A stretch of 64,000 bases of DNA, taken from a bacterium (GTDB lineage Bacteria > Zixibacteria > MSB-5A5 > GN15 > FEB-12). This document shows, in pieces, positions 2,618 through 39,897 of the stretch. Under the pieces are notes generated by a model that saw nothing but the letters and a program-made list of their open reading frames with translations, was not told where the DNA came from and did not search any database. A program made the translations under genes and the position numbers. Numbering within the stretch: position 1 is the stretch's first letter; each line of letters begins with the position of its first letter. The DNA lies in NCBI GenBank assembly GCA_043811375.1, contig JBDRNJ010000027.1, positions 1 through 64,000 on the forward strand, written 5' to 3'.

Positions 2618-3019
2618 CTAACTCTCTGTAGATATGTCTTCATCGTAAACGTATTTCTCGAACGTCCTTGCCAGCGAGAGTGTCTGTTCTCCCTTCTCCT
2701 GGGGATCCAAGTCGAGATTTGCCATCACGTAAGCAGCCGACTTGACACAGCTCATTTTGGCGATACGCTGATCTCTGAGACGAAGATATTCTTCCCTTCC
2801 AGGCGGAGTTTCAGATCCGGCGCCAGCAACTGTTAGATCAGTGATATTCTTCCACTGGCCTGATTCCTTGTATTCGAAATCGATCGTATCGCCCTCACTG
2901 AACGCGTCGAAGTGGTCCTGGTCCCAGATTGAGTACATCTCACCATCGATCTGAACCCGCAGATACTCGTCGCCTCGTTTTGACGTTTCCCTTGAGATTT
3001 CTTCTACCTTTCCTTTCAT
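2618..3019 (-). CDS. Putative OB-fold nucleic-acid-binding protein
   Basis: Beta-rich N-terminus (KGKVEEI...YLRVQIDGEMYSIWD...EGDTIDFEY...WKNI) resembles an OB fold. RBS GGAGG overlaps the stop of the upstream gene. Confidence 0.6.
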   Translation of the reverse strand: MKGKVEEISRETSKRGDEYLRVQIDGEMYSIWDQDHFDAFSEGDTIDFEYKESGQWKNITDLTVAGAGSETPPGREEYLRLRDQRIAKMSCVKSAAYVMANLDLDPQEKGEQTLSLARTFEKYVYDEDISTES

Positions 3020-3023
3020 ACTG

Positions 3024-3524
3024 TTACCTCCCTAACTTTGATTTTAGATTAACGGCTAGATCATGAATTGCCGAGTTTCCAGGTCTGTAATTGCTTTCAC
3101 TTGAGGATCTGGAATCCGAAAACCTGAGGCCCAGTTTTGATATGAGTAACATCAATACCCAAGGTTTCAAAACGTATTCCGGTTCCTCAACAGGTTTGGT
3201 GAATACAAACTTACCAGCTTTAACTAGATCAGGTCTGACCCTCTTTTGAATGAAAACCTCTGCTTTACAGAGTCTTTTCAGGTTATTTCTGACTTGTATA
3301 AGGCCCGCTCTTATTCCTATTTGGTTTAGATGGAGCTGATACCAGATAGGATCAGCTCTGTTTCCTAAAACAATGCCTCGTAAACAGAGCTCGGAATTCT
3401 TGAGCGCCAGCGTAGTAAGTGCAATGCGCACCAACTCAGGGCTGACTTTTGTTGCTCGGTCAGAAATCGGCGTAGATCTGTTTCGGCCAGCCTTCGCTTT
3501 CAAGTCCGAGTTCCTTTTCCTCAT
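3024..3524 (-). CDS. Hypothetical basic protein
   Basis: 166-aa ORF coupled to 2618-3019. No SD; TATA-like TTAAATA about 24 nt upstream. Confidence 0.55.
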   Translation of the reverse strand: MRKRNSDLKAKAGRNRSTPISDRATKVSPELVRIALTTLALKNSELCLRGIVLGNRADPIWYQLHLNQIGIRAGLIQVRNNLKRLCKAEVFIQKRVRPDLVKAGKFVFTKPVEEPEYVLKPWVLMLLISKLGLRFSDSRSSSESNYRPGNSAIHDLAVNLKSKLGR

Positions 3525-4007
3525 GGATTACATTTGAGAGTCCTCAGTATTTAAGCATCGCGCGCGTAGGCTGCCTCCTTCCTAATCGCTGAATCGGATT
3601 ACTTCCTGAGTTGCCAGAGACCCAACATAGCCTTCTTGACATGGGCGGTTAACCAGATTGCTCACGATGCCCTCATCCGGCGGAGGAATCCAGATCCCTG
3701 TTCAATCCTCCCTGGCGAGTCAGGTCTCAACAGCCAGCCTGAGCAGCTTATTCAGCGTGTCCTGTTCATTCAGGCTTTCAAAGAACTTGCCGACATCGAC
3801 TGCAGTGTGATTGAGTTGCGGAGTCGTTTCTTCCCCTTCTTGGCGGTGTTCAAATCCGATCAGTTCGTCCAGAGAACAGCGGAGGGCCATCATACTGCTC
3901 TGGCACAGACTAACTAAACGTAAAACGGTAAGATCAGAGGACAAGAACCCGCGAAGAGACCTTTTTCAACAAGCGACTACACGCCACAAACCGTACCGCA
4001 TTGCCAC

Positions 4008-4036
4008 CGTATAGAATCAAGAATACAGTGCGTCAA
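4008..4036 (-). promoter_or_regulatory. Sigma70-like promoter
   Basis: TTGACG-17 nt-TATACG on the minus strand, upstream of a degenerate ORF at 3720-3944. Confidence 0.4.
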
Positions 4037-4132
4037 CCTGTTGTTTTCTCAGATGCCAATCTGATCAGCCTGGCGCGCTATGATGCCAAAGACGCAATCC
4101 CCGGGAGCACTGGGCACCTGGGTGCACAACAG

Positions 4133-4738
4133 CTACCTAATCAGGAGCATTTTCCTGCTCTCCGTGTACTCCCCTGCCGAGAGCTTGTAGAGGTAGACGC
4201 CGGTCGCTATGTCCGTTCCGTGCTGATCTTTTCCGTCCCATGTAACTCGCTTGTAACCGGCGCTCAGATTCTCGGAGAGCAAGACTGCTACCTTCTGGCC
4301 AACGATGTTGTAAACGCATAGGTTGACAAAACTGCGCTCCGGCAGTGTGAATTCAATCGTCGTTGACGGGTTAAACGGGTTGGGATAGTTCTGAGAAAGC
4401 TCGAAAGAAGCAGGCTGGTTTGCCGTCTCACAATCTTCCACCGGGGTGGGACTGCCGGGGGATAGATACCCCGAACCTGTGTAATGACCGGAACCCTCGT
4501 TGTCGATAACCGCCTCACCTATACCGGAGTGGATGGTGTAATTGGATGTTGAGCCAACCGCACCGCCGCTGTTGATCACAGCCCAATTGGCGGAATGCGA
4601 GGACGTTGAGGTAGACATACACGGCTGGCGATTCTGGGCGTCGGCAGAGATGCAGGCTATCATCACAACGCAGACCACAACAGAACTACAGACTAGAAGA
4701 GTCTCTTTGATGGTTGTACGCATGTCACATTTCTCCAT
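4133..4738 (-). CDS. Secreted protein with FlgD-Ig/T9SS-like C-terminal domain
   Basis: Signal peptide and C-terminal LSQNYPNPFNPSTTIEF...WDGKD...ATGVYLYKL...KMLLIR. Confidence 0.9.
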   Translation of the reverse strand: MEKCDMRTTIKETLLVCSSVVVCVVMIACISADAQNRQPCMSTSTSSHSANWAVINSGGAVGSTSNYTIHSGIGEAVIDNEGSGHYTGSGYLSPGSPTPVEDCETANQPASFELSQNYPNPFNPSTTIEFTLPERSFVNLCVYNIVGQKVAVLLSENLSAGYKRVTWDGKDQHGTDIATGVYLYKLSAGEYTESRKMLLIR

Positions 4739-4743
4739 AACAG

Positions 4744-6321
4744 CTACTCCACACCAATATGCTTACGGTGAGCAGCATATTTCTTATAATCGACACCATA
4801 TTCGTCACCCAAACCGAAGGCTTCGGGATGAATGTAGAGTCCTTGTTCATTCGCAGGCTTCTCTACTTCAACTTCAATTGGGTTGGCCTGCGCGAAAGCG
4901 TCCTTGCGGATTCCCGTCACCTGCCATGAAACTCGCATACCTGGCTGCCCTCCGGCGATCTCGAACATGTTTGCCTCTATTTCCTGAGAAATGTACACCG
5001 GAGCGTAACCACCGATGCAGGTCAATTGGTAACGGAAGTCCTTGTTCAGGGCCTCGAAGTACTCCGGCAACTCAACTATCGCTTCTCCCTTAGGGTCCAG
5101 CTCAACAACGCCATCGTACACGTTTTTCATATCGGGGCTTGCGACTGAACTGTGAACAAGATATTTGTTCTCCGGGTCGAGCGGATGATCGATTTTCAGC
5201 GTGCTCTTGCCACCGACCAGATTGCCCGAAACATACACATCTCCATCGAAATAGCCCGCCCAACCGGGGGAATTACCATAAACAGCTATACCTTGATCAG
5301 ACCAACCGGCGATTCCATATCCTTGCTCACTGGCGCTATATCCGGAAACGCCAGCAGCTTCAGGTGCCAAAGATTTCCCGTATACGCCATCCGAGCCCCA
5401 CGACTCCGCATACACGGCGTTACCAGTACCCTTGGTTAGTGCGTACACCGCGTAGTTCTCATTAGATGTCAGGTTGACAACGAACTTCCCTGCCGTGCCC
5501 CGGTGCTGGGTCGATACGTAAAGGGCTGGACCGTATACGTTTGGATTCAGGTGCTCAAGGCGCAGCGCCTCTCCTTCGCCGTGCTGTACTGCCTTAAACG
5601 CCGGCTGCCCGAGCGTGCAGTCCAGAACTGTGCCGCAGGCGACACCGCTTTCGACGTTCCCAATTACCCACGCGCTTCCATTCCACATCATCACCTGGCC
5701 AGCACTCGTTGCGCCATTCTGGTGTATGTTAGAAAACCGTATGGTCCCATCAGAGATATCCTCAAAGGTTACCGCGTCGTCTACAATCATAGAACTTGTA
5801 ATCGTGTTTGGTTCACCCTCTTCGACGAAAGCTGCACGGTCGGCCCCATCTAACTTATCAGCATTCAAGTTGACGTTCTGCACCCCGTTACTGATCGGTA
5901 CCTGCTCGGACAAATTACCCGGAACGTAACCTTGTAGCTCCTTTGTATTCATGCTATACGGTACGCTCGTCAGTTGTATTCGCGGTATTGGGTTGTCGTC
6001 CCCTTGGATATGCAGCTCAAGCCAGTATTGTCTGGACCAGTCTAGATCTGCCAGGCTGTTTTTTGTACCGAGCACAATACAGACGGTACCATCTGTTATG
6101 TTGCAGGTGTGCTCTTCCGACCACCATTGTGATCCACCCAGAGCAGCATCCCAAATCCTGAAAGTGATAGTGTACGAACCTGAGACGTTCTCGCCGTCGG
6201 CATCCCTTATGATGCCCTGATAGTTTATCGTACCGAAATCGTATTCGGCAGCCATAATGGATACCGAAATCACTGAAACGGCTACTACCGCCGCAATCCA
6301 TACTCTTAACGCTTGTTTCAT
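4744..6321 (-). CDS. Secreted fibre/adhesin-like protein with Gly-rich beta repeats and chaperone-like C-terminus
   Basis: Signal peptide, INYQG N-domain, repeated GVYG/AVYG units, and a KIDHPLDPENKYLVHSSV...YQLTCIG C-terminal domain. Confidence 0.8.
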   Translation of the reverse strand: MKQALRVWIAAVVAVSVISVSIMAAEYDFGTINYQGIIRDADGENVSGSYTITFRIWDAALGGSQWWSEEHTCNITDGTVCIVLGTKNSLADLDWSRQYWLELHIQGDDNPIPRIQLTSVPYSMNTKELQGYVPGNLSEQVPISNGVQNVNLNADKLDGADRAAFVEEGEPNTITSSMIVDDAVTFEDISDGTIRFSNIHQNGATSAGQVMMWNGSAWVIGNVESGVACGTVLDCTLGQPAFKAVQHGEGEALRLEHLNPNVYGPALYVSTQHRGTAGKFVVNLTSNENYAVYALTKGTGNAVYAESWGSDGVYGKSLAPEAAGVSGYSASEQGYGIAGWSDQGIAVYGNSPGWAGYFDGDVYVSGNLVGGKSTLKIDHPLDPENKYLVHSSVASPDMKNVYDGVVELDPKGEAIVELPEYFEALNKDFRYQLTCIGGYAPVYISQEIEANMFEIAGGQPGMRVSWQVTGIRKDAFAQANPIEVEVEKPANEQGLYIHPEAFGLGDEYGVDYKKYAAHRKHIGVE

Positions 6322-6776: not shown

Positions 6777-7502
6777 TCACGTATACAGTTTTTCAACCGC
6801 GGCTTTTCCTTCTGACTCAACAACACTGGCGTAAACCTGGGTAGTTCGTATTGACGCGTGACCCAATTGCTGCTGGACAAATCTGTAGTTGTAGTTGCTG
6901 GCTTTCAGGAGAAAGGTTGTGTAGGTGTGCCTGAGACAGTGTATGTAGTAGTAGCTGGATAAGCCGGCATCTCTTATGACATTTTTGAAGGCCTTCTGCA
7001 AAGCCCTTTTTGATATCCGACTGCCTTCAAGATTGTTCAGGAGAAAAGACTCCGAGTGTATATTGTATCCGAATCTTCTCTTGTACTCAATATAGTCGTG
7101 GCAAATCTTCTTAAAGCGGGAGCTGATCCATACTGGTCTTTTCTTATTGCCTTTACCCAGAACTACAATTGATGACCTGACATCATCGATGAGAAGATCG
7201 CCATGTTTTAGAGAAGCCATTTCACTGACTCTTAGGCCGGCATTCAGGCCGAGTTCTATCATGAACCAGTTTCTTATCTGGCTGAATCTATGATCCCGAA
7301 TCCCATTGCCTCTGACTTTTTTGCCGGCCAATCGCAGTCTATTTATTTCTCTCGTACTAAGGCATTTTCTTTCATCGATAATCCAGCCTGGCTTTGTCTT
7401 CACCTTCTTGGGGGGGTCACTTTTCATCAGTTTGGTGAACCTGGTAACAAGAGACATACATGATGGTAGATGCGAGAGCATATAAACACGTCGGTTGCTC
7501 AT
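6777..7502 (-). CDS. Small catalytic-domain-only tyrosine recombinase (likely start MKSDPP ~7428)
   Basis: Complete catalytic set: GLRVSE (R), GKGNKKR (K), HCLRH, LGHASIRTTQVY. No SAM-like N-domain. Confidence 0.92.
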   Translation of the reverse strand: MSNRRVYMLSHLPSCMSLVTRFTKLMKSDPPKKVKTKPGWIIDERKCLSTREINRLRLAGKKVRGNGIRDHRFSQIRNWFMIELGLNAGLRVSEMASLKHGDLLIDDVRSSIVVLGKGNKKRPVWISSRFKKICHDYIEYKRRFGYNIHSESFLLNNLEGSRISKRALQKAFKNVIRDAGLSSYYYIHCLRHTYTTFLLKASNYNYRFVQQQLGHASIRTTQVYASVVESEGKAAVEKLYT

Positions 7503-8203: not shown

Positions 8204-8995
8204 TTATACAGCTTCAAGGGCGTTTAAGATCGCGGCTGAAGTGGACTGTATGCGTTGGAGAGATTCAGCAAGCGTATCCTTGTCGCCATTGTAAAGCTGG
8301 ATGTAATCGCTGCAGGCAGTACCGGCATCAAACCCTATGGCATGGCAGACAACAAACGCTACTGCTTCAGCTTCGGTTTCTCTAACTGTCTTTGAGGCTC
8401 GCTCGCCTTCGCAGCGGTGAAGCAACTCGTGAGCTAGTTCATGCACCCGAACCTCAAAATCGTGAGCGGGTGGAAGATCTGTACGGATAGTTATCTTTCC
8501 TCCACTGGAGCACCCCTCGACTGTGAGTTCACTTGAATACTCGAGGGAGATTCCGCAGCTTGCGATGAAGGTATTCAGACGGTCATGGAATTCACCGGGA
8601 TTGCCGGCTACGTATTCCGGTTGAGGAAGAGGTTCGCCGTCGGTCTGGCTGACATCAAAAATGTGAACCGCTCGATAGCCGAGGACTTCGTACCCCTCGC
8701 ATTCAGGTTCAAGATCCTCGTCTTTTCTTCGGTTGGTGATAGGAGCGAGAATCATGATACCCTTCTCACCCTTTCTCACGAAGCGATCAAACTTGCGCCA
8801 AGTGTGAAAGCCTGCAACCTGGGTTGCATCTGGTCGTTGCATGGCAATGAGCATCAGGTTTCCAAAGCTGTACCGGTGAAACCGGCTCATGGCAGATAGG
8901 TAGGCTCGCAGCGTGTCGCTTTTCCCTGCTTCGAGCGCAGCAACTAACGACGTGAGGGCCTTGTCGGTGAGTTCTCTTGCTTTGTCCTTTTTCAT
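8204..8995 (-). CDS. ardC: ArdC-like antirestriction protein (ssDNA-binding domain + zincin)
   Basis: FHRYSFGN...VAGFHTW...RFVRKGEKGI N-domain, HELAH motif, ETEAEAVAF. Confidence 0.85.
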   Translation of the reverse strand: MKKDKARELTDKALTSLVAALEAGKSDTLRAYLSAMSRFHRYSFGNLMLIAMQRPDATQVAGFHTWRKFDRFVRKGEKGIMILAPITNRRKDEDLEPECEGYEVLGYRAVHIFDVSQTDGEPLPQPEYVAGNPGEFHDRLNTFIASCGISLEYSSELTVEGCSSGGKITIRTDLPPAHDFEVRVHELAHELLHRCEGERASKTVRETEAEAVAFVVCHAIGFDAGTACSDYIQLYNGDKDTLAESLQRIQSTSAAILNALEAV

Positions 8996-9429: not shown

Positions 9430-10812
9430 TTACTCTTCGACTCTCAGAAAGCATCCGGTGAGTGTGACTCCCTCCTTGACAAGTGATCGTGCGAGTGATA
9501 AGAGGTCGTAGGTATCGTTTTCATAGCCGGCGTCAAGGATGGTATTGCCGCGCAGGTGTCGGATTACGAACATGGTCGAGAGCATGTTGCGTAGGTCGGT
9601 GTCAGCCAGAATGGGGAAATTGCGGTGGGTGTGTCCGTAGCCTGTGTCTACCTTTATGAAGCGATTACACTTGAAATGCTGGGTCATCTCTGCTTCGTGC
9701 TTCTCGTACTGGGTCGTCGCAAGCTTGGCCAGTTTCTCGAGGAGTTTGTCTTTGGTGCCGGTCATACTGACGTTGTGGTTGCGGAGCACTGTCTTTATCC
9801 GGTCGCCCGTGTCTCTGGAATTGAGGTAGCCGCCGATGGCGTAGCTTTCGATTCTAGCTTTGTAGACGGTTGCGCTTGAAGCACCTGGTTCTTGTTTATG
9901 TGTGTAGTTGACCCCGGGGAAGCCGATGCAAAACAGGCCGGTTTGGAGCATCCGGCATAGCTTTGTCATGTTCGTGGTGAAGCAATACCTCCCTTGGTTT
10001 ATCCGCCACTTGTCCGCTAATGACTGGGCGGCGTAACGTACCGCCGGGTCGTGGTTTAGGTTGGGAATCAGTCTTATTTGACAGCCCTTCCTTCTGCCGT
10101 TGTAGGATAACTGCTGGTGTCCGTAGTCAGGCGTTCGTTCATTCGCCAACAGCACGAAGTCGTTAATACTGTCTGCCAACTTGAGCAACCCCCTGTCGTC
10201 GGTGACTCTGTCAAGGAACGCAGTGGTTCTGAAGTTCGTGACAGGTAAAGCCTGTCTGATGACGAGTTCGTCTTCGCTGTCGAAGTCCCTCGGGCTGAGA
10301 ACGTCGGCCAGGTCGTGGTGGTCCAGGTCGTCGTAGCTTGACAGCTTTACACTCTGTCGCTTTGACTTGATGAATGTCCTCAGATCATTGAAGTTCACGT
10401 ATACTTGCAGGGCCAGCTCCTTTGCGAGAGTGTGGTTCCATTTACGGCGCAGTTGTTGCCTGGCCAGCTTCAGTAGTCTTTGATAGGTGGTAGTCTCGAC
10501 AAAGCGAAGTATTTGGCTGACCCGCCGCAGGAACTCAGTGAACTGGTCATATTCTGTGTAGCAGTAGTCGCGGTGACAGGAGCCTATGTCATGACAGTGC
10601 TTAAGTTCAGCGAGTTGTTTGATCTTGAATTGGTCAGAGTTGAGCAGTTGGACGAACCTTTCGGTCAGGGTGCGGTTGGCGCGGTTGTCGCTGTGCGGGT
10701 GTATGCCCTTCTCAATGACATCTTGCACGTCCACGTCAACGATTTCCCCGGCCAGTTGCTTGAATTCCGGGATGTCCCTGTCATCCTTGAACCATAGCCT
10801 GAACGTCTCCAT
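9430..10812 (-). CDS. Hypothetical protein with SAP-like DNA-binding motif
   Basis: 460 aa, coupled to the MoxR gene. IKTVLRNHNVSMTGTKDKLLEKL resembles a SAP motif. Confidence 0.7.
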   Translation of the reverse strand: METFRLWFKDDRDIPEFKQLAGEIVDVDVQDVIEKGIHPHSDNRANRTLTERFVQLLNSDQFKIKQLAELKHCHDIGSCHRDYCYTEYDQFTEFLRRVSQILRFVETTTYQRLLKLARQQLRRKWNHTLAKELALQVYVNFNDLRTFIKSKRQSVKLSSYDDLDHHDLADVLSPRDFDSEDELVIRQALPVTNFRTTAFLDRVTDDRGLLKLADSINDFVLLANERTPDYGHQQLSYNGRRKGCQIRLIPNLNHDPAVRYAAQSLADKWRINQGRYCFTTNMTKLCRMLQTGLFCIGFPGVNYTHKQEPGASSATVYKARIESYAIGGYLNSRDTGDRIKTVLRNHNVSMTGTKDKLLEKLAKLATTQYEKHEAEMTQHFKCNRFIKVDTGYGHTHRNFPILADTDLRNMLSTMFVIRHLRGNTILDAGYENDTYDLLSLARSLVKEGVTLTGCFLRVEE

Positions 10813-10813
10813 C

Positions 10814-12298: not shown

Positions 12299-12413
12299 CG
12301 TTGTTATCTCCTTCTATCTTTTTGTTTTGTTATGGGGCAAATGAATAGAGGGAGCCGCCAGGGCAGCTCCCTCGTGGTTGAGGTGAATTGATTGGCTGAG
12401 AAGGTTCCTGATT

Positions 12414-13700: not shown

Positions 13701-14451
13701 GGATACACCTCCTTCAGTTAATGAGTGATAAAGAGAAATGCCCGATGGTGCATCGAGGCCTGCCATCGGGCGTTTAAGGTTGCTGTTTATTCAATTCAAA
13801 GAATAATGGCGGGGATAAAACGGTGCTTAGGATGACTAGATTCAGGAATGGAACCGGCTCAAGAAACCGTGGCAGTCTCAGAAATAATCCTTGATATTAT
13901 GAGGGGTATATTATAGGTTTAGATTGTTGATTTAGCTCCTTAGGTGAACAGGCCATCTATCAAAAGGTTCTTTTCTGCAATTCGTCGGAACACCTTGTCT
14001 AGTGTTCCCGTGTTTCTTGCCGGAGGGGTCAGAATGATCGCTGAGAGAAATGATTGAGCTTGGTGTCAAATGGAGGTGAGGGCTTGTCATGCTAGCGGCC
14101 TGACGTCTGACTGATTTCGCTACCGGGCGCTTTCGACTTTGGGAGCACAATGAATTGTAGATTGGATGATGGTAAGAATGCGGACATTGGCACTATTTCT
14201 CGTCATCCCGTCGCCCACTTCCCTCGATGTCGGGCTCCGTGAACGAAAGAAAACCCAGAGCCTTTCTGATTTCCTAACTGTGGGTGCGTGGATTCAACCG
14301 ACAGGTTTCGAGCGTCCTTGGCAAGTGCCAGTTTGTTGGTATCGAATACTCTCTTCGTCTGGGCAATTTCGTGTTTCGGCTATGGGTGGAGTGCGGTGGT
14401 TGCGCTGGCCTTAGGCGTAATCCCAACAATCAATTAGGTAGGAGGTAATTC

Positions 14452-26645: not shown

Positions 26646-26652
26646 ATTCTAA

Positions 26653-27700: not shown

Positions 27701-27856
27701 ATGAGAGAGACGACTGAAGAATACGATGACGAATCCCACGAATTTGCTGTGTGCGGTTTGTGTGACAACGAGTTCGTTCCCTGTGGAAACCGGCAGTGCT
27801 GGGGCAATGATTATTGCCCCGATTGTATAGAACCTAAGGAGTTGGTGAGAAAATGA
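27701..27856 (+). CDS. Small Cys-rich zinc-finger protein (51 aa, absent from the ORF track)
   Basis: GAGGTGA RBS; MRETTEEYDDESHEFAVCGLCDNEFVPCGNRQCWGNDYCPDCIEPKELVRK; ATGA overlap with the next gene. Confidence 0.7.
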   Translation: MRETTEEYDDESHEFAVCGLCDNEFVPCGNRQCWGNDYCPDCIEPKELVRK

Positions 27857-32081: not shown

Positions 32082-32301
32082 GAATTGCAATGGATGAAAG
32101 CCTTTATAAAGTTTTTCCCCTATGTGTACCTAGTCCATCAGGACTCAGTCATCACCCCGTAAGCGTTTCGTCAGGTTGACCTTATTACTTGAAGGCAGGT
32201 CGCGAGGCCTGCGTGAAGCTCGTGACCTCTTGAACGGAGAAGATGAAATGATCACGAGAGAACTTCGCAAGCAATGTCTTGAATGTAAGGAGGACACCAT
32301 C

Positions 32302-32859
32302 ATGCCAAATGAATTGAAGGTCTTGGTCCTTATAGACCAGGCGAATCTGCACGGGCAGGCCACTTCACTTAACAAGCGGTTCAACATAGTGAAACTCTAT
32401 GAGCGCCTCCTCGGGTCTGAGAACGGTGTCGGCCGAGGCGATTGCATCGTGTATGCGCCGGTGCTGCCGGGGAATCCGGACGGTTCACATGGGAACCACG
32501 ACTGGCTCAGGCATTCAGGGTTGCAGGTGGTAAGCAAGCGAGCGAAGCGCCTTCCTGATGGTACCGTGAAGTGTGATATGGACGTGATCCTTGCACTGGA
32601 CGCAATGGAACTGGCTCGGGAGGCAAAGCCGGATGTCATCATCTTGGCGTCGGGCGACGGCGATTTCTCTCCGCTGGCGATCAGGCTCCGGAGAATGGGA
32701 ATAAGGGTCGAAGCGGCAAGCTGCAAAGGAAGCTTGGCAGGTGAACTCCGCGCAGCTTGTCAGCGTGTCATCGAACTGGACGAGTTTTTCTCAAAGCCTG
32801 AGAAGATGGATGAAAGCGCGGTCATCACTGCGGTTCCTAGTGTTCAGGATGTCGCATAG
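32302..32859 (+). CDS. NYN-domain (LabA/DUF88) PIN-like nuclease
   Basis: VLIDQAN...KCDMDVILALD...LASGDGDFSPL...L...C...IEL. RBS AAGGAGG. Confidence 0.92.
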   Translation: MPNELKVLVLIDQANLHGQATSLNKRFNIVKLYERLLGSENGVGRGDCIVYAPVLPGNPDGSHGNHDWLRHSGLQVVSKRAKRLPDGTVKCDMDVILALDAMELAREAKPDVIILASGDGDFSPLAIRLRRMGIRVEAASCKGSLAGELRAACQRVIELDEFFSKPEKMDESAVITAVPSVQDVA

Positions 32860-32887: not shown

Positions 32888-33757
32888 ATGAATAGGCTTC
32901 AGATTCGGAGAATGAGGAACAGGCTGGATCAGCTTCACGATCCTCGCCGTCTGAGGGCAGAGCTGCTTCGCTGTCGGAAGATTGCCTGGTTGGACAGGTC
33001 CAAGCTTCGTGGTGAGGAAATCAATGTAGTCAGGCAGTTCCGGAAGCAATACGGGCGATGGTTCGGGGACGAGGGGATGCCAAGGTTTCCTTCCGACGAA
33101 TGGAGCGCAAAGCTGAAAGGAAAGTCAATGAAGATTGGTGGCTGGGTTGGTCTTGCGCTTGAGAGTGGTATAGCAGCGCTTGTCTCTCCCGGCGTTCTAG
33201 CAATGCCACCTGTAAGGGCGGCCGTGGTCGGAGTAGGTGTCACCTTGGCGTTCGCAATCATGGTTAAAAAGGGGCTCTTGGCCGTGGGCTATGATGAGGA
33301 TGACCCGATCCGAAGCCGGAACAGGCTAGCATGGCTCGGTTCGATCGTCTTGGGGATCAGCCTTTTGATGCTTGTCCCCTTCTTCCTGGGCAGAGCGAGC
33401 GCTGAAGTTGGGAGCCTGGCAGGCTGGGCGCTGGGCATCCTCGGCGTCTCACTCCCTGTTACCGCCGCAGGCTTGCTGGCAGCCGGTGAGCTGACGTCTT
33501 GGCCCCAGCAGCTAACTAGGCAATTCAGGTCAATCCGCGCCAGGAGAGCGCGGGTAGAGGCCTTTCTGCTTGAAGTGAACATCAAACTGGAGGATTTGAA
33601 ATGCAGAGCAAAGCACTCACACTGGCGGCCGCGCAGGGGATATTGGCAACGCTCTTCATCGCGTCATGCATGGAGCAAGAACCAATTCGGCAACAACGGG
33701 AACAGGAAGCGAGCTTCGAACGGTTCCAGGTTTTCGTCGATACGTCGGGCAGTCTAG
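32888..33757 (+). CDS. Four-TM membrane protein
   Basis: RBS AGGAGG; four hydrophobic helices. The Arg-rich tail overlaps the next gene. Confidence 0.7.
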   Translation: MNRLQIRRMRNRLDQLHDPRRLRAELLRCRKIAWLDRSKLRGEEINVVRQFRKQYGRWFGDEGMPRFPSDEWSAKLKGKSMKIGGWVGLALESGIAALVSPGVLAMPPVRAAVVGVGVTLAFAIMVKKGLLAVGYDEDDPIRSRNRLAWLGSIVLGISLLMLVPFFLGRASAEVGSLAGWALGILGVSLPVTAAGLLAAGELTSWPQQLTRQFRSIRARRARVEAFLLEVNIKLEDLKCRAKHSHWRPRRGYWQRSSSRHAWSKNQFGNNGNRKRASNGSRFSSIRRAV

Positions 33758-34467: not shown

Positions 34468-34720
34468 GCATTCATCCGGCAACCAGTTGGATCTGTTTGA
34501 CAGCTTGAATAGCGAGGTTGCGAGGTCTGCGGACCTGGACGCTGAGGAGATATCTCGGCAAGAGAGGCATCAGCCCGGGGATGGGCAAACAGTATCAACG
34601 ACGGAAGCCACGATAAAGGAGGATGTGTGCGCGTGTCATCAGTGCGGAAAGCACCGTGCTGGCGCAGACGATGAAGTGGAAGAGCTTGTCACAGCACTTT
34701 ATGGCCCAGGAAATACGTGA
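34460..34720 (+). CDS. Small acidic protein with QLDLF motif and CxCxxC
   Basis: RBS GGAGG; MAKHSSGNQLDLFDS...CACHQC. Confidence 0.55.
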   Translation: MAKHSSGNQLDLFDSLNSEVARSADLDAEEISRQERHQPGDGQTVSTTEATIKEDVCACHQCGKHRAGADDEVEELVTALYGPGNT

Positions 34721-34778
34721 GAGTGTTGAGTTGAACTCTCCAGTTAGGCGAGAACGGAAGATAGATGGAGGAACTGAC

Positions 34779-35168
34779 ATGGATAAAAAGAGCAAACCGG
34801 ATGACGACGCCCTTGAACTGAAACGGGACGTTAGCAGGGAGCGGATAGGCCGTGACGTTGCTGAGACCGGACAGGTCAAGCAGGTGGTGAAGCGGGAGTT
34901 TGAGTTCGACGGCGTGCTTGGCAGCGAGACAATAATCGAATACGCTCAGCTTTACTGCGGTCACTTGTCGCCGGCTAGTGCTGGTGGCCTCTGTGTCTGC
35001 GGGCGAAGTTACTGTCGGGCGTGCCTGGAGTCTGCAGGAGCCAATTGCAGCGTTTGCGGCAGGCTGATCGGACCCTGCTGCGTTTCTCGATCGTGCCTGG
35101 ATCAGGACCGCGTGTACTGCAAGCAGTGTCGGTTTTTTGGCTGGTTAGCTTGGCTATTTGGAGGATGA
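34779..35168 (+). CDS. Cys-rich double zinc-finger protein
   Basis: RBS GGAGG; CGH...CVCGRSYCRAC...CSVC...CC...CKQC. Confidence 0.75.
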   Translation: MDKKSKPDDDALELKRDVSRERIGRDVAETGQVKQVVKREFEFDGVLGSETIIEYAQLYCGHLSPASAGGLCVCGRSYCRACLESAGANCSVCGRLIGPCCVSRSCLDQDRVYCKQCRFFGWLAWLFGG

Positions 35169-35395
35169 TTACAATGGCTTGGATCTTACTTTTGCTCGGG
35201 CTCTTTTTCGTGTTCACCAGGATACTGCCCTCCCGAAATGGGGCAGTTGTTACAGGGTTCCTCATGCCCGTAGTGTTTATCCTGTACTTGGCTACTGTCT
35301 CTCCCAACCTCGCGCGATTCGTTGCGATTATCATCGGCCCAATTCTCCTCGTGGCTTTTCTGAGGTTGAGGTCCAAAGGCCGGCGTGGGAAGTGA
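35165..35395 (+). CDS. Small three-TM membrane protein
   Basis: ATGA overlap with the previous gene; hydrophobic with a basic tail. Confidence 0.7.
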   Translation: MITMAWILLLLGLFFVFTRILPSRNGAVVTGFLMPVVFILYLATVSPNLARFVAIIIGPILLVAFLRLRSKGRRGK

Positions 35396-36716
35396 CAGTA
35401 TAGGGTCCAAACTCATGTGGCGCGAACAGAGACAATTGCAGAGGTTGGTCAACCTGCTCGGAACATCTGAGCCTCGCGTGTCACGCCTGGAAAGGCTGGC
35501 GGCGCTGCATCCGGAGAAAGTCCCACAAGTCTTGAGGTCGCTGAGTCTCTTGGCAATCAGGCGAGGCCTTGACCCGACCAACATGCCTGCGTTTCCGGTC
35601 TGCCGGAATGCCTTGCCGGCTGATGGCGTGCACCTCGGAGAGCAGATGTTCGGCGAGCAACCCGTGGGCGAACTGCGGCTCGGTATTGAAGACATGCTTG
35701 GGTCACACGTTCTTGTCGCAGGGGTCACAGGCTGGGGTAAGACCTACCTGCTTATGTATATTCTCCAGCAGCTAGTCAAAATGGCATATCGCGTATGCGT
35801 CTTTGATAGCGAGTCCGAATACTGGAAGTTTGCGGAAAGAGCTGGGCTGGATCAATGCTGGTTTGTCCATCTCGAAGACGACAAGGACAACCCGCTCCAG
35901 CAACCGCCCAATGTCCCGGTAGGCAAGTGGTTCGCCGCCTGGAAACGCAGCGTGCGCGAGGTCATGTGGTGCCGGGAAGGCATGATCAATCTGCTCACCC
36001 TATGCATTGGCAACCTACTGAAGAATACAAAAGGACAGAAGCCAGAAAGGTCCCCCACCATCTCCAATCTTTACTCCCTGTTGAACAACATGAGGTTCCA
36101 GCCTGGAACCAGACGCGCTGGTTATCACGAATCGCTCTTAGACAGGGTGCAGTCGCTCCTGGACAACCTTGGCCCGATGGTGGATTGTGAGTCAGGATAT
36201 CCACTGGAAGACCTTGCACGGAAAAGCCTCGTCTATGACATTTCATCACTCAGCCAGGAAGCGCAGTTATTCGTCCTGCACCTTAAGCTCCTGAAGATGC
36301 AGCTCTATCGTGAGGCCCAACTGGAAGAGGCTGGGAAAGAGGCTGCTGCTACAGGCTCCGACGTTTTCGTTGTGGAGGAAGCTCACCGAGCAACGGCCAA
36401 GGTACTGGAGAAAAGGCCTGACCTCGGAGAGCCGCTGCTTTACGACTTGGTGAGGACGGGAAGAAAGCGCGGCGCCAAGTTCGTATTCGTCGAACAAGTG
36501 ATAGCCGGAATCCCATACCAGATTCTTGGCAACATCAACTGCAGGATCATAGGGAGAATCTCTGACGGCCGCTCTTTGATCGCACTCGCGCAGATAACGG
36601 GGTGGGACGACGATCAGCTGGATTTCATTCGGGAACTCCCGCCCAGACATTTTGTCATCCAGACGCCGCTAATACCTGATGGGGCCGTGTTCAAGGTACC
36701 GGATTTGAGTGAATGA
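35385..36716 (+). CDS. HerA/VirD4-like (DUF87) ATPase
   Basis: HVLVAGVTGWGKT, VFDSESEY, VVEEAH, GRKRG, FVEQ. Confidence 0.88.
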   Translation: MGSDSIGSKLMWREQRQLQRLVNLLGTSEPRVSRLERLAALHPEKVPQVLRSLSLLAIRRGLDPTNMPAFPVCRNALPADGVHLGEQMFGEQPVGELRLGIEDMLGSHVLVAGVTGWGKTYLLMYILQQLVKMAYRVCVFDSESEYWKFAERAGLDQCWFVHLEDDKDNPLQQPPNVPVGKWFAAWKRSVREVMWCREGMINLLTLCIGNLLKNTKGQKPERSPTISNLYSLLNNMRFQPGTRRAGYHESLLDRVQSLLDNLGPMVDCESGYPLEDLARKSLVYDISSLSQEAQLFVLHLKLLKMQLYREAQLEEAGKEAAATGSDVFVVEEAHRATAKVLEKRPDLGEPLLYDLVRTGRKRGAKFVFVEQVIAGIPYQILGNINCRIIGRISDGRSLIALAQITGWDDDQLDFIRELPPRHFVIQTPLIPDGAVFKVPDLSE

Positions 36717-37462
36717 GTATGGATAAACAGGAATTGAGAAAACGCATGCGCGAAATCCTGGCGGAACTGGATTGGAGGGGTGCTGGAAAGGGCGGAAGTG
36801 AGGAACCAGAGACCCTGGAGGTTGCCGGAACCTCGGGAGGAGCAAATCGCTGGGTGACTGTCCGGGATGCGCATAAGAAGGTCTTGGCCAGCGTGGCGAA
36901 AAATCCCTTCTACTCGATCACTGAGCACACAGAGGCAATCGGGAACATAAGCGCCTGGGTTATGGCCAGAGTGATTGAAGAACTGACAAAGATAGGCTTT
37001 CTGGGAGAACCTCTGCCACTCTCGCTTGGCAAACGCGGAAGCCCGAGGCGGTATCTCAAGATCACACCCAGAGGTGCAAAGCATATCGGTGTAAAATTCG
37101 AAGACTGCCGGATACCTGGCAAGGGGTCTTTCGAACACTGTCTATACCAAGACATCGTTTACCGCTTTCTTAGAGCCAAAGGCCGGGCTGTCCTGATTGA
37201 GCAGACATATAACGGCAAGGCAGTGGATGTAGTGGAGCACCTTGACGACGGCAAGGTCAGGGCATACGAGATCGAACTTAGAGCTATCGGGCATGTCGCT
37301 GACAATATACGTGGTGATCTAGACGCTGGGTGCATGGCGGTCATAGTGGTGACGCGGAACCGATCCGAAGAGAAGCGGATTTCCTTGGCAGTCTATGGCA
37401 GGCTTTCCGCCGAGATGCTGGAGCACGTCAGCTTCCGGACGATTGGAGAGTTTGTTCAATGA
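36713..37462 (+). CDS. wHTH + PD-(D/E)XK nuclease-fold protein
   Basis: SITEH...LKITPRG wHTH; GSFEHCLY; AVDVV...AYEIEL. ATGA overlap with the ATPase gene. Confidence 0.8.
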   Translation: MSMDKQELRKRMREILAELDWRGAGKGGSEEPETLEVAGTSGGANRWVTVRDAHKKVLASVAKNPFYSITEHTEAIGNISAWVMARVIEELTKIGFLGEPLPLSLGKRGSPRRYLKITPRGAKHIGVKFEDCRIPGKGSFEHCLYQDIVYRFLRAKGRAVLIEQTYNGKAVDVVEHLDDGKVRAYEIELRAIGHVADNIRGDLDAGCMAVIVVTRNRSEEKRISLAVYGRLSAEMLEHVSFRTIGEFVQ

Positions 37463-38060: not shown

Positions 38061-38242
38061 GAGGAAAACGCCTCAGCGGGCGAGTGTGCAGAGCAAACGG
38101 AAAATGGCTGCTGGATGGCAGCTGATGATGCAGGCAGGCTGGGAAGCCCGCCAGCAGTAGTCCGGGCAGAGTTGCAGGGTCAGCAAGCAACCTGCCGGGT
38201 CGACGGGTAGTTGTGAAGGCTGTTAGCCAAACGACGGGTTGG

Positions 38243-38372
38243 GAATTGGATGAATTGGATATGTGTAAACTAAACCAATTCAATTGGACAACTCAACTGG
38301 ATTTATAACAACGAACGCTCGTTTGCCAGGATAGTCACCCAACTCAGTACCGACGGAAGAGGCTGAATTGGA
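38243..38372. repeat. Cluster of AATTGGA short repeats
   Basis: AATTGGA at 38244, 38253, 38282 and 38366; AACTGGA at 38295; inverted CCAATT at 38275. Confidence 0.6.
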
Positions 38373-38568
38373 ATTTACAACGAAATCAATGCACAGGCGA
38401 GAACAGGTGGAAGCCGATAGGTCGGCAAAGAGTGAGAAGGGGTCATGTTCGTTTCGTGCCACGTTTCTTCACCTACCGCTGCCAAATTGGCATGATCGGA
38501 TGCTAAGATCAGGGAAACAACGATGTGGAGACTGACACCAAGGGCAATTCACAGGACAGGACAAAGGC

Positions 38569-38802
38569 GTGCCACGTGACCTGTTGACGCCCCAGCAGCT
38601 TGCTGATGTGCTCGGTGTGAAACTTTCCACCATCTATTACTGGAGCCACACGAGGTATATCCCAACAGTCAAAATGGGAAGGCTATTACGGTTTAGACGC
38701 AGTTCAATCGAGCGATGGCTTGAAAAGCGAGAGAAGCCTCCAGTCAACAGGAAACAGTTGGCCAGCTCGGCAATGAAATCGAACTCAGCAACATTGAAGT
38801 AA
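38569..38802 (+). CDS. xis: Excisionase-like HTH_17 protein
   Basis: LLTPQQLADVLGVKLSTIYYW...IPTVKMGRLLRFRRSSIERWL. Confidence 0.9.
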   Translation: MPRDLLTPQQLADVLGVKLSTIYYWSHTRYIPTVKMGRLLRFRRSSIERWLEKREKPPVNRKQLASSAMKSNSATLK

Positions 38803-38847
38803 CGTTTGAGATGTCGACCAAGAACAAAGTGTCAGCAGCAGCCATAT

Positions 38848-39897
38848 CTAGTCAGATTCACTCAAGTAATTCAAGTTTTCTACTGCTCTCCTATGAGCGT
38901 CCTGAGTTGTGTGAACATAGGTCATTGTCATGCGTATGTCTGAGTGTCCCAGAAGCTCCTTGACCACAGGCAGTGGCACACCTGAGTCAACTAAGAAGCT
39001 GCCGAATGTGTGTCGAAGAGAGTGAACAGATGTTAGATTGGCAATTCCTGCACGTCTCGCAATCAGGATTAGTCGCTTTCTGATTTCACCGTGAAATGTT
39101 GGTCTACCTTCAAGGGTGAAAACGTACGGGTGCTCGTCGCCACGATTGACGCAAAGGGACCGTAGGACGTGCTTCAACTCGGGACTCATGGCAATATCTC
39201 TTTCACCTGTTTTCGGTTTCCAATCATCTTTGTGGCGAATATAGATGACTTCTTTCTCAAAATCGACATCTTGCCAGGTCAGGTGCTCCAATTCACCGCG
39301 ACGCATACCCGAGTGCAAGAATCCCAAGATCACTGACCTCATATCTGGGGGGCTCGCGTCCAGAAGGACTGACACTTCGTCCTTTGTCAGGATACGATGA
39401 GGCTTAGCGTCCATCACTCGTTGGAACCTAATGCCATCAGTCGGGTTCTTCTCGGCCAAATCCCACTTGATAGCATAATTGAAAATCGTCCTCAGAGTTT
39501 TGATTTCAAAATTCATACTCTTCGTCATTGGAGGTTGCGTGCCCGCGAGCCGAGATTGGCGGTACCTCTCTATGACTCCAAGATTGACTTGCGAACAGAG
39601 CCTTATTCTCGGTTCGGTAACGAGGAATTCTTGAAACCGGTCTATCACATTCTGATAACGCTGGCTGGAAGCACATGCCATGTTCATCTTGGCGAAACTG
39701 GCAAATTGGACGAACACGTCTGAGATTAGAGAATCGTTTCGGTCAAGGCCATACTCCCCACGCACAAGGCGTCCCTCGATGTCGGCTAGGACTTCAAGGG
39801 CCAGCCTCTTACTGGGTCCCACGATCTTGCGAACCCGAATGCCTTTTCGGCAGACGTCGATCTGATAATTCTTCCCTATCTTCCGCAAGGAACCCAT
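38848..39897 (-). CDS. int: Phage/ICE-type tyrosine integrase
   Basis: Arm-binding N-terminus, SGMRRGEL, KPKT, HSLRHTF, LLGHSDIRMTMTY; adjacent to the tRNA-Asp 3' end. Confidence 0.95.
   Translation of the reverse strand: MGSLRKIGKNYQIDVCRKGIRVRKIVGPSKRLALEVLADIEGRLVRGEYGLDRNDSLISDVFVQFASFAKMNMACASSQRYQNVIDRFQEFLVTEPRIRLCSQVNLGVIERYRQSRLAGTQPPMTKSMNFEIKTLRTIFNYAIKWDLAEKNPTDGIRFQRVMDAKPHRILTKDEVSVLLDASPPDMRSVILGFLHSGMRRGELEHLTWQDVDFEKEVIYIRHKDDWKPKTGERDIAMSPELKHVLRSLCVNRGDEHPYVFTLEGRPTFHGEIRKRLILIARRAGIANLTSVHSLRHTFGSFLVDSGVPLPVVKELLGHSDIRMTMTYVHTTQDAHRRAVENLNYLSESD

Follow-up and report, generated by a model that had tools for sequence, protein, structure and literature searches.

The window analysed here, a stretch of 64,000 nucleotides, starts at the end of its contig. 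Its positions 1-40003 are acquired low-GC DNA, which extends from a tRNA-Asp (GTC) gene (40004-40078, minus strand), the integration target, back to the contig start. The GC content is 0.504 compared to 0.536 for the genome, and the region is the lowest-GC 40-kb window, with 0 of 162 windows sampled across the assembly lower. An intact tyrosine integrase (integrase A, 38848-39897, minus strand; Phage_integrase E 3e-29, SAM_5, phrog_1 E 2e-55) lies 107 bp from the tRNA 3′ end, together with an excisionase-type HTH_17 protein (xis, 38569-38802, plus strand; E 5.2e-14). Judged by their sequences, this pair at the tRNA appears to be functional. On the other side, a tRNA-Val (40153-40228, minus strand) is followed by a bacterial core flank with an ECF sigma factor (45038-45640), holA (45633-46661) and SurA (62312-63613). 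A tRNA-associated island with int and xis beside bacterial core genes, as described in an earlier sequence-only reading, was thus confirmed.

The region does not represent a single integrative element, as that reading had assumed. Integrase B (6777-7502, minus strand; family match) lacks its N-terminus, retains only the catalytic domain and is 27% identical to integrase A. A decay zone at the contig start (233-2377, minus strand) contains an rve-type IS transposase (233-1288), an N-terminal fragment of integrase C (1352-1843) and a protein kinase fragment (2084-2377), all on the minus strand. The three integrases (whole or remnant), the IS and the truncated genes mark window positions 1-40003 as a mosaic of what integrative elements have left behind. 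It is the part next to tRNA-Asp of a composite and partly decayed genomic island, in a sediment bacterium of the FCB group, probably one of the Zixibacteria. The remnants reach window base 1, where the contig ends, so that the far end of the island lies beyond the contig and the previously proposed left limit at 2618 is arbitrary. The 28 nt at 40001-40028 (tRNA-Asp end) occur twice more on another low-GC contig (C32) of the same assembly; a duplicated tRNA-Asp 3′ end was sought in the window and no second copy was found. Bacterial tRNA-integrated islands and integrative mobilisable elements share the tyrosine integrase and excisionase at a tRNA 3′ end, the atypical GC, the cargo and the decay. 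In contrast to these, the window here lacks the flanking repeat, several integrase remnants are present and no relaxase or oriT was recognised.

Two secreted cargo ORFs (4133-6321, minus strand) encode a 201-aa T9SS-tailed protein (4133-4738), in agreement with the FCB-type cargo noted before, and a 525-aa protein with a signal-like N-terminus and no assigned family (4744-6321). They are followed by an ArdC-N protein of the anti-restriction type (8204-8995, minus strand) and a three-gene set (9430-13766, minus strand) consisting of a 460-aa protein without family (9430-10812), a MoxR/CobS-like AAA+ protein (10814-12298) and a VWA protein (12414-13766). Further cargo comprises a peptidoglycan-binding-domain protein (14452-15702), an ankyrin-repeat protein with a hydrophobic segment at the N-terminus (16983-17813), a membrane protein with eight hydrophobic segments and a weakly M48 peptidase-like C-terminus (28408-30540) and an NYN-domain protein, a predicted RNase (32176-32859; E 5.7e-22), all on the plus strand. 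A weak SprT-like/M78 metallopeptidase-like Pfam match was obtained at 26653-27261 (minus strand). Many island ORFs have no family. Regarding the small zinc fingers of the sequence-only reading, small Cys-rich ORFs do exist, namely a 181-aa ORF without family match (34623-35168, plus strand) and another at 27701-27856, but none gave a Pfam zinc-finger match above threshold. The OB-fold protein and the tailed acylphosphatase that it had listed were not recovered, as no ORF matched either family at E <= 0.01. Its statement that DnaB, DnaG, relaxase, VirB and capsid genes are absent holds for all ORFs scanned against Pfam, NCBIfam and PHROGs. Likewise, no VirB4, pilus or pore genes (Pfam, NCBIfam, PHROGs), no portal, tail or lysis families except for the peptidoglycan-binding domain (Pfam, PHROGs) and no MCM or other archaeal replication gene were found in the island.

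Both HerA/nuclease modules of the earlier description are present, one split and one fused. The split pair, located near integrase A and downstream of the 181-aa Cys-rich ORF, consists of a HerA-like protein of a divergent lineage that carries only the ATPase (35385-36716, plus strand; DUF87 E 2.8e-10) and a winged-helix and REase-fold protein (36713-37462, plus strand) that shares homology with the C-terminal region of the fused form; the two genes overlap by 4 nt.

The fused form belongs to a three-gene operon, and it is this operon that accounts for the ‘archaeal-looking’ genes. The first gene encodes a helical partner of 142 aa without known family (21424-21852, minus strand), recognised by its position next to HerA in relatives; a truncated second copy lies at 22746-22967 (minus strand; 78% identity over 162 nt to 21691-21852). 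According to Pfam and NCBIfam matches, structure models and alignment, the second gene (19287-21374, minus strand) is a fusion of a HerA ATPase, a MarR-type winged helix and a PD-(D/E)xK nuclease, with intact Walker and catalytic residues. In the AF2 model of the fusion (pLDDT 83.8), the ATPase core matches HerA, the DndH C-domain (7es4, TM 0.76 by target) and VirB4, with Foldseek E-values of 1e-15 to 1e-11 and TrwB also among the fold matches. A model of the C-terminal part (pLDDT 93.5) shows a MarR-type winged helix in residues 1-85 (Z 10-11.7) and a REase fold in residues 96-202 (1y88_A, Z 10.1), for which Foldseek returned Can2, Cdn1, the EcoRII catalytic domain and R2 endonuclease. Across 33 aligned C-termini, D127 and E142 do not vary at all and E140 hardly does. 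Divergence of the winged helix does not exceed that of the other non-ATPase domains, and hence nothing points to the diversifying target recognition often seen in conflict systems. The third gene encodes an Orc1/Cdc6-type AAA+ protein (18458-19222, minus strand). The Orc1/Cdc6-like ATPase is therefore real, with TIGR02928 as best NCBIfam match (E 2.9e-24), although its 85.6 bits remain below the cut-off of 181.3 and the truncated protein reaches only position 240 of the 348 in the profile. It has lost the last part of its lid domain together with the winged helix, of which no remnant was found; lacking its DNA-binding domain, the local copy is probably impaired.

The trio has relatives across many bacterial phyla. 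Bacterial titles were found for 76 of 80 genome loci of the HerA fusion family, and the four archaeal-titled rows are placed inside bacterial branches. All Cdc6-like relatives bearing a source name are named bacterial, and the closest relatives of the island genes are bacterial records, often from Zixibacteria or FCB. An archaeal or cross-domain origin, as proposed earlier, is not supported by these placements. Calditrichota, Ignavibacteriota and Zixibacteria share near-identical HerA proteins. At 66/80 loci the gene immediately upstream of HerA, on the same strand, is the partner. Placement of the Cdc6-like gene is loose, 0-10 kb away and at times on the opposite strand; it was found within 10 kb at 29/80 loci and not at the other 51. 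The usual order is partner-HerA-Cdc6 on one strand, as in the window. In the reverse test, HerA adjoins the close Cdc6-like clade at 10/34 metagenome loci and at 7/11 loci of at least 8 kb, compared to 2/46 for more distant Cdc6 homologues. Within the phylum sample the spread is patchy (19 of 201 genomes); all six genomes with a full-length fusion also carry a Cdc6-like gene, and 7 of 13 with a Cdc6-like gene have no HerA. At 347-424 aa, full-length Cdc6-like relatives are compact and have the canonical Orc1/Cdc6 make-up (AAA+, Cdc6 lid, Cdc6_C winged helix); five of six tested match the whole TIGR02928 profile with scores above its cut-off.

One genome carries four copies of a 25-31 kb element (88-98% identity) and another carries three copies. 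The trio is retained in all four copies of the former, where no recombinase or other replication gene was recognisable, and could therefore itself serve mobility or replication. In one genome, a 2.8-kb partner-HerA cassette is repeated alone with differing flanks. Recurrent HerA neighbours are ArdC, RadC, DUF3150, CobS/T-like, SprT-like, Replic_Relax and tyrosine recombinases, that is, mobile-element housekeeping or anti-defence genes, with known defence genes not among them; the VWA/MoxR-CobS-like/460-aa set also recurs near HerA in other phyla (29-70% identity). Known viruses and plasmids contain hardly any relatives of the trio: 2.9 million viral contigs gave one marginal match (49 residues, E 2e-6), and 41 of 72,556 plasmid records matched, none covering at least 80% of the query. 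Our data indicate that the trio is a recurrent, mostly bacterial module carried within large, often multi-copy integrated elements.

We see about an even chance that the trio of this composite island is a capture-and-cut system for DNA, carried by the element and targeted by sequence, and that it represents a variant of the predicted Orc/Cdc6-HerA/FtsK capture systems. The winged helix would aim the soluble HerA ring at particular DNA, and the ring would pump double-stranded DNA and offer it to the nuclease domain fused to it. Regulation or assembly of the ring may fall to the small helical partner, and the Cdc6-type ATPase may be a switch that binds DNA in an ATP-dependent manner and recruits or licenses the HerA machine. 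The element would most likely deploy the trio against competing incoming DNA, in exclusion or defence. The available text of Rakesh, Aravind and Krishnan (NAR 2024, PMC10853773) predicts, itself in silico, that neighbourhoods with Orc/CDC6, HerA/FtsK, wHTH and active REase are counter-invader systems. The domain inventory described there is the same (Orc/Cdc6-family AAA+, HerA/FtsK ATPase, winged helix, active REase-fold nuclease) and is likewise spread over one or several polypeptides in mobile neighbourhoods; the ATPase fold, close to the DndH C-domain, is a further likeness. However, that text calls invariant an inactive REase inserted in Orc/Cdc6 after the AAA+ core and before the winged helix. 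This insert is absent from the compact canonical Cdc6-like relatives here, which argues against this reading. Also in contrast to those systems, a conserved helical partner comes first in the operon and the Cdc6-like gene is loosely placed. The 51 loci without a nearby Cdc6-like gene, the neighbours, which are not known defence genes, the four-copy element with no recognised recombinase and the winged helix with no excess divergence count against it as well. So does PADLOC, which gave only weak generic HerA/mad8 matches (HerA models E 1e-9 to 1e-13), while the partner and the Cdc6-like protein drew no match. Some of the best matches by sequence and by fold are anti-phage HerA complexes (Sir2-HerA, DUF4297-HerA; PDB 8j4u, 8su9, 8xau, 8ziq), in which a nuclease or NADase effector likewise accompanies a HerA-type ATPase. 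Their effector is a separate partner that binds N-terminally, whereas here it is fused C-terminally via the winged helix; neither a SIR2 nor a DUF4297 gene is present and the PADLOC HerA matches are weak.

The main rival, possible but doubtful, is that the trio replicates and maintains the element, with an Orc1/Cdc6-type initiator of the excised element, HerA as motor or helicase and the nuclease nicking or processing the origin. This corresponds to the backbone proposed by the sequence-only reading, but with a bacterial origin. The canonical relatives passing the TIGR02928 cut-off and the four-copy element with no other recognisable replication or recombination gene would fit such a role. In addition, the available text of Makarova et al. 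(2014, PMC4158269) lists HerA-like and Orc/Cdc6 genes among the commonest families of archaeal integrated plasmid/virus islands, tRNA-linked ‘dark matter’ islands with which this one shares an integrase, a HerA-like and an Orc/Cdc6-related ATPase; here, in contrast, the families are bacterial clades (76/80 loci), HerA is fused to a winged helix and nuclease, and MCM is missing. Against replication, no iterons or origin-like repeats adjoin the operon, the window Cdc6-type copy has no DNA-binding winged helix, and a motor-fused nuclease is unexpected in a replicative helicase. HerA and the Cdc6-like gene also often occur apart (51/80 loci; 7/13 genomes), and the partner-HerA cassette is repeated alone.

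It seems improbable that the trio is a DNA-transfer machine, in which HerA, like FtsK-type TraB or VirD4, pumps the excised element into a neighbour cell after the winged helix recognises a site in cis. The layout of an ATPase with a C-terminal winged helix recalls FtsK and TraB, and actinomycete integrative elements with FtsK-like TraB have int, xis and a ring ATPase whose winged helix recognises DNA, as here. Weak TrwB/VirB4 P-loop matches to HerA (Pfam, NCBIfam), the VirB4 and TrwB fold matches and conjugative-element-type neighbours (ArdC, RadC, DUF3150, Replic_Relax) point the same way. TraB, however, is membrane-anchored and has no nuclease, whereas HerA, the partner and the Cdc6-like proteins contain no hydrophobic or membrane segment. 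Double-strand transfer is not known to involve a fused nuclease, the island has no relaxase, VirB4, pilus or pore genes, and no close relative occurs on the plasmid records. With no membrane segment in these proteins, no origin-like repeats and no DNA-binding winged helix in the window Cdc6-type copy, the replication/transfer backbone of the earlier reading was not supported. Still less probable is a cryptic provirus, in which HerA and nuclease form a packaging enzyme and the ORFs without family are unrecognised capsid genes: ATPase plus nuclease is the functional logic of a terminase, and PHROG 2666 (‘terminase large subunit’) matches both HerA proteins (E 1.9e-12 and 1.5e-14), but viral contigs yielded only the single marginal match and structural and lysis families are missing. 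Least credible of all is an artefact, either through chimeric assembly or because an archaeal contig was mis-binned and joined onto a bacterial chromosome: the contig begins within the island and no public run spanning the int-tRNA junction was found, but the closest relatives are bacterial, T9SS-tailed cargo lies within the island, the 28-nt tRNA-Asp end recurs in the assembly, and int and xis occupy the standard position by the tRNA.

The gene set is little described, as had been suggested from the sequence, and the trio is widespread in bacterial mobile DNA, not borrowed from archaea.

Three consecutive minus-strand genes of the island (positions 1-40003 of the window) are coupled as an operon. 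The first encodes a helical partner protein of 142 aa (21424-21852), the second a HerA-like protein of about 681-695 aa (19287-21374) and the third a 254-aa AAA+ protein of the Orc1/Cdc6 type, here called Cdc6-like (18458-19222). The gaps between consecutive genes are 49 and 64 bp, and none of the three proteins contains hydrophobic segments. The second protein belongs to the HerA-like clade, as it carries a P-loop ATPase core with the HerA fold (Pfam DUF87, E 4e-11), and its profile matches HerA in the PDB (4d2i, E 6e-20). In an AlphaFold model made from a 19-row alignment (pLDDT 83.8), an N-terminal helical region is followed by a small barrel, the ATPase core (residues ~100-423), a long helix, a winged helix (491-552) and a C-terminal alpha/beta domain (573-680). 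Foldseek searches with the ATPase core returned archaeal HerA (4d2i, E 1e-15), the DndH C-domain (7es4, TM 0.76 by target) and VirB4 (TM 0.75). The core also matches the Sir2-HerA and DUF4297-HerA defence complexes and TrwB.

The nuclease is part of the same polypeptide. No family match to NurA, the partner nuclease of archaeal HerA-NurA, was found in the island, and a fused REase fold stands in its place. The C-terminal 202 residues of the fusion were modelled separately from a 33-row alignment (pLDDT 93.5). Residues 1-85 of this model match MarR-type winged helices (VIA-align Z 10-11.7), and residues 96-202 adopt the REase fold (1y88_A, Z 10.1, rmsd 3.0 over 100 residues), for which Foldseek returned Can2, Cdn1, VC1899, the EcoRII catalytic domain and R2 endonuclease. 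Within the pattern ‘D...ExETGK’, D127 and E142 do not vary across the 33 aligned C-termini and E140 hardly varies; the fusion in the window retains all three of these residues as well as the Walker residues. Divergence of the winged helix, considered as a signal of conflict, did not differ from that of the other non-ATPase domains. For the small partner no usable match in the Protein Atlas was obtained, and the predicted partner-HerA complex (median score 0.16 against a mark of 0.32) carries no weight either way. The sequence-only reading had noted two modules combining HerA with a nuclease, and both are present. The second is split into a 443-aa ATPase near the integrase (35385-36716) and an overlapping gene for a 249-aa winged-helix-REase protein (36713-37462) that aligns with the C-terminus of the fusion; this split module belongs to a divergent lineage.

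The Orc1/Cdc6-like ATPase had also been recognised from the sequence alone, and the call is right for the family. In NCBIfam the window protein is closest to TIGR02928 (‘orc1/cdc6 family replication initiation protein’). The alignment spans profile positions 14-249 of 366 with E 2.9e-24, and its score lies below the curated cut-off (85.6 versus 181.3 bits). Five of six full-length relatives exceed this cut-off over the whole profile (187.2, 183.0, 253.3, 253.8 and 238.9 bits), and the sixth reaches 180.5. The AAA+ core is present, with G-x-x-G-x-GKT (Walker A) and DE (Walker B) as invariant columns that include the window row. Among solved structures, the best sequence matches of the window copy are human and Drosophila Cdc6 (E 3e-9 and 1e-7), then clamp-loader subunits and then archaeal Cdc6/Orc1. 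The Cdc6-like proteins of related loci measure 347-424 aa and possess Cdc6_lid and a Cdc6_C winged helix. A profile of 16 relatives aligns with the window over positions 23-240 of 348 only, and no remnant of the Cdc6_C winged helix beyond profile position 240 was found in any frame of the window; the window copy has therefore lost its DNA-binding domain.

Conservation of the gene order was assessed with clustered ORFs from 80 loci and the island. These loci were kept from 178 confirmed relatives of the HerA fusion in a collection with one genome per species; among 8000 scored candidates, 441 were relatives at E <= 0.001. In 66 of the 80 loci HerA is immediately preceded, in the same orientation, by a gene for a small helical partner, and a Cdc6-like gene occurs within 10 kb of HerA in 29. 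The usual order is partner, HerA and, 0-3 kb further on the same strand, the Cdc6-like gene, which is identical to the order in the window. When metagenome contigs were searched in reverse with the close Cdc6-like clade as query, HerA was found beside 12 of 80 loci overall: in 10 of the 34 loci at least 36% identical to the query (7 of the 11 among these with a length of at least 8 kb) and in 2 of the 46 with more distant Cdc6 homologues. In a sample of the host phylum, all six genomes with a full-length fusion also have a Cdc6-like gene, on the same contig and 22-45 kb apart where this could be resolved, and 7 of 13 genomes with a Cdc6-like gene had no HerA match at the threshold used. From the counts in both directions, the link between HerA and Cdc6 is strong and specific to one Cdc6-like clade, of canonical architecture, but it is not obligatory.

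Other neighbours recur less often. A tyrosine recombinase is near HerA in 14 of the 80 loci, and genes for a VWA protein, a MoxR protein and a 460-aa protein are near it in 10-11. Also recurring near HerA are ArdC-N with a metallopeptidase, RadC, DUF3150, CobS/CobT-like pairs, SprT-like, ThiF, SNF2 helicase, Replic_Relax, PD-(D/E)xK nuclease and resolvase genes. The set of VWA, MoxR (CobS-like) and 460-aa genes is found at 9430-13766 of the window and at seven loci of relatives (L044, L074, L080, L022, L077, L076 and L014). Cross-phylum identity is 56-70% for MoxR and 41-57% for VWA, compared to 30-39% for HerA, which suggests a recent spread of the set across phyla. The 460-aa protein matched no family and gave no usable structural match. 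With the closest locus titled as Zixibacteria, the island has in common only HerA, the Cdc6-like gene, one small ORF and the second HerA.

The trio resides in large mobile elements. A Thermodesulfobacteriota genome (G205, loci L107-L124) carries a unit of 25-31 kb in four copies that show 88-98% identity and differ in their flanks. On the right the unit ends sharply just past a 145-aa ORF, the left end exists as two subtypes, and no clear terminal repeats were seen by eye. In the copy that was scanned in full, a 424-aa canonical Cdc6-like protein is located at one end, followed by a LuxR-type regulator, an FkbM methyltransferase, DUF3150, a group II intron, DUF2958, RadC and, after RadC, the partner, a PDDEXK_1 nuclease and HerA; about 20 ORFs belong to no family, and no integrase or transposase was recognised with Pfam and NCBIfam. 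The group II intron is present in one of the four copies. Another genome has three copies alike over at least 12 kb (L010, L012 and L013). At three loci of a single genome (L033, L074 and L075), a 2.6-2.8 kb cassette of partner and HerA is all that is repeated, with 85-87% identity and differing flanks. The two-gene unit of partner and HerA appears to move or recombine as a cassette.

The distribution of the fusion is overwhelmingly bacterial. The 80 loci bear the titles Zixibacteria, Aminicenantes, Acidobacteriota, Chloroflexota, Planctomycetota, Thermodesulfobacteriota, Ignavibacteriota, Calditrichota, Lentisphaerota, Verrucomicrobiota, Bacillota, Pseudomonadota and others, and four are archaeal MAGs. 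Within the sampled host phylum, a HerA match (E <= 1e-20) was found in 19 of 201 genomes and 13 of 108 genera, with some genomes carrying several copies. In a FastTree phylogeny of 72 full-length HerA proteins, the four archaeal-titled rows sit at three places within bacterial branches, so that the HerA phylogeny does not bear out the cross-domain origin that had been proposed. Between Calditrichota, Ignavibacteriota and Zixibacteria the HerA sequences hardly differ (end branches <=0.06), and the exact placement of the window HerA is unsure because of its long branch (1.52). HerA of a Promethearchaeota-titled locus (L069) is sister to that of a Zixibacteria-titled locus (L059) with support 99 and branches of 0.18 and 0.26. 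The cargo resembling T9SS-tailed proteins is also closest between these two loci, which have no similarity at the nucleotide level. This likeness may reflect gene transfer or a binning error.

Among published classes, the closest to the trio are the Orc/CDC6-coupled ‘HerA/FtsK capture systems’, which the passages of PMC10853773 on these systems propose to intercept invading DNA in replication, transfer or packaging; the anti-invader activity is there itself an in-silico prediction. As in those systems, an Orc/CDC6 ATPase, HerA/FtsK, a wHTH and an active REase co-occur in the trio. In contrast, section 22 of PMC10853773 treats as invariant an inactive REase that separates the AAA+ core of Orc/CDC6 from its C-terminal wHTH, and the Orc/Cdc6 proteins of the trio's relatives do not have this insert. 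There is no room for it, because AAA+, Cdc6_lid and Cdc6_C are contiguous in relatives of 347-424 aa that cover the full TIGR02928 profile. Since the inactive REase is absent and the relatives are compact canonical Orc1/Cdc6 proteins, we file the trio as a variant working like the capture class of PMC10853773 and not as a member of it. A literature search that left aside the supplement of PMC10853773, which may list the architecture, found no paper describing the exact trio.

From this comparison and the domain composition we infer how the trio might work. The winged helix would aim a soluble HerA ring at DNA, and the ring would pump double-stranded DNA and cut it with its own nuclease. The partner would be a subunit that assembles or regulates the ring, and the Cdc6-type ATPase, bound to DNA, would serve as an ATP switch for recruiting or licensing the ring. 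The main rival explanation is that the trio is the replication or mobility machinery of its own carrier. The canonical Cdc6 architecture, the multi-copy element without a recognisable recombinase and a precedent in archaeal integrated elements, as treated in part of PMC4158269, are in line with such a role, whereas the motor carries a fused nuclease, the Cdc6-like gene is linked only loosely and no convincing origin-like repeats were found beside the operon, at 17700-18500 or 21800-24450; an AT-rich stretch at 22100-22800 (GC 0.35-0.40) overlaps an ORF. We regard it as improbable that the trio is a self-contained archaeal-style initiator-plus-motor engine in bacteria. Here HerA would replace MCM as the ring loaded by a canonical Orc1/Cdc6, and the nuclease built into the ring would open the DNA, driving replication or copy-out of large integrated elements that lack a recognisable recombinase, such as the four-copy element of 25-31 kb in G205. 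If true, this would be a new replication or movement route for bacterial mobile DNA.

A conjugative DNA pump is unlikely, because a membrane anchor, a relaxase and pore genes are all absent. In the scanned ORFs of the island, no family of relaxase, coupling protein or VirB4-type mating-pore ATPase rose above threshold, and the conjugation-type matches that do occur are weak, at the P-loop level and inside HerA. The lack of DnaB/DnaG, relaxase, VirB and capsid families, remarked on in the sequence-only reading, holds for the scanned ORFs. Its idea of a replication/transfer backbone is not borne out: the proteins of the trio carry no membrane segment, convincing origin repeats were not found and the Cdc6-like copy in the window has lost its winged helix. 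It is also unlikely that the island is a provirus, as no structural family such as capsid or portal was found among its scanned ORFs and 2.9 million viral contigs of IMG/VR gave one marginal match of 49 residues to the HerA fusion. Of 72,556 plasmid records, 41 match in the generic ATPase domain only, all with <60% identity and none covering at least 80% of the query.

The island itself is a mosaic rather than one clean element. As had been noted, an intact tyrosine integrase (38848-39897, minus strand) and a 77-aa excisionase-type HTH_17 protein (38569-38802) lie at tRNA-Asp(GTC) (40004-40078, minus strand), with the integrase gene starting 107 bp from the tRNA-Asp 3′ end; integrase and excisionase beside a tRNA 3′ end mark an integrative element. 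A tRNA-Val follows (40153-40228, minus strand). The GC content of bases 1-40003 is 0.504 compared to 0.536 for the genome, and all 162 of the 40-kb windows sampled across the assembly have at least this GC content. A second integrase consists of the catalytic domain only (6777-7502, 27% identical to the first), and a third is an N-terminal fragment (1352-1843) adjoining an rve-type IS transposase (233-1288). The island also contains a protein kinase fragment (2084-2377) and truncated genes, among them the Cdc6-like gene and a second copy of the HerA partner gene (22746-22967). T9SS-tailed (FCB) cargo is present, as had been expected, with its best relatives in Zixibacteria-titled loci such as L005. 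Three further ORFs (24399-25430, 28408-30540 and 32888-33757) contain 4-8 hydrophobic segments and have no family or a weak (M48-like) match. The OB-fold protein and the acylphosphatase that had been listed found no family match at E <= 0.01. Of the small zinc fingers, Cys-rich ORFs exist (34623-35168 and 27701-27856), but no zinc-finger family rose above threshold. To the right of the tRNAs, the window is ordinary bacterial chromosome with genes for GNAT, aldo-keto reductase, an anti-sigma factor, an ECF sigma factor, holA and SurA. This flank also encodes a 911-aa C25 (gingipain-type) peptidase with a propeptide domain (47315-50050), adjoining a type II secretion/type IV pilus gene cluster (50160-58010).

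The far end of the island lies beyond the available sequence. The assembly comprises 3.56 Mb in 92 contigs, and the window covers the first 64 kb of the 79.5-kb contig C27, so all DNA left of the tRNA ends at the contig edge. No second copy of the tRNA-Asp 3′ end was found in the window by a 26-nt pattern with up to 3 mismatches, by repeat scans or by short blast beside the three integrases; the left limit of 2618 proposed earlier is thus baseless. On a low-GC contig of the same assembly (C32, loci L001/L002) the tRNA-Asp end recurs as two exact, equally oriented 28-nt copies (1499-1526 and 17850-17877), each preceding a 185-bp arm; the arms are 83% alike. Judged by sequence, these copies and arms are the signature of related elements stacked at a tRNA-Asp. 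Between and after the copies are ankyrin, TPR-CHAT (1457 aa), NACHT-HEAT, PEGA-repeat and ABC transporter fragments as well as IS copies, and a truncated serine recombinase terminates within the first copy. C32 cannot be linked to C27, because both of its ends are inside a multi-copy IS, nothing else in the assembly matches the first 2.6 kb of C27 and the second tRNA pair, on contig C28, is occupied. At this tRNA-Val/tRNA-Asp pair (L003, 1223-8876), the tRNA-Asp 3′ end overlaps the end of a gene for a 531-aa large serine recombinase, after which come an ImmA/IrrE-like M78 peptidase, an Xre-type HTH protein and an 845-aa DnaG-type primase. An integrative element distinct from the island occupies this paralogous tRNA.

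Two features speak against a chimeric assembly at the join of island and chromosome: the genes of the island have bacterial affinities, and integrase, excisionase and tRNA lie in the standard geometry. Public sequencing runs each contained <=0.11 of the sampled words, and the matching contigs were short pieces of relatives (85-99% identity, fragments of integrase and excisionase included), among which no bridge from integrase to tRNA and no circular junction was found. For the empty-site comparison, the nearest genomes belong to other genera, where a flank gene is only ~52% identical.

The earlier observation is hence partly confirmed and its interpretation partly supported: the gene set is little described, the island is integrative and carries FCB cargo, but the gene set is bacterial and not cross-domain. 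The window copy of the trio is decayed, and the island, an ordinary decayed mosaic, is not the best copy to study. The interesting part is the wider family of the trio, which is widespread and which the literature has anticipated only in part. Genuine members of the Orc1/Cdc6 family are usually regarded as initiators of archaea and eukaryotes. In the present case a compact Orc1/Cdc6 clade is linked, in both directions, to a HerA pump that has a DNA-recognition domain and a nuclease fused to it, and the trio spreads among bacterial phyla within large multi-copy integrated elements. If it is a defence or exclusion device, it would be a new architecture for HerA-based immunity and a test of the published in-silico prediction; as an engine of replication or mobility, it would place Cdc6-type initiation at work in bacterial mobile DNA.
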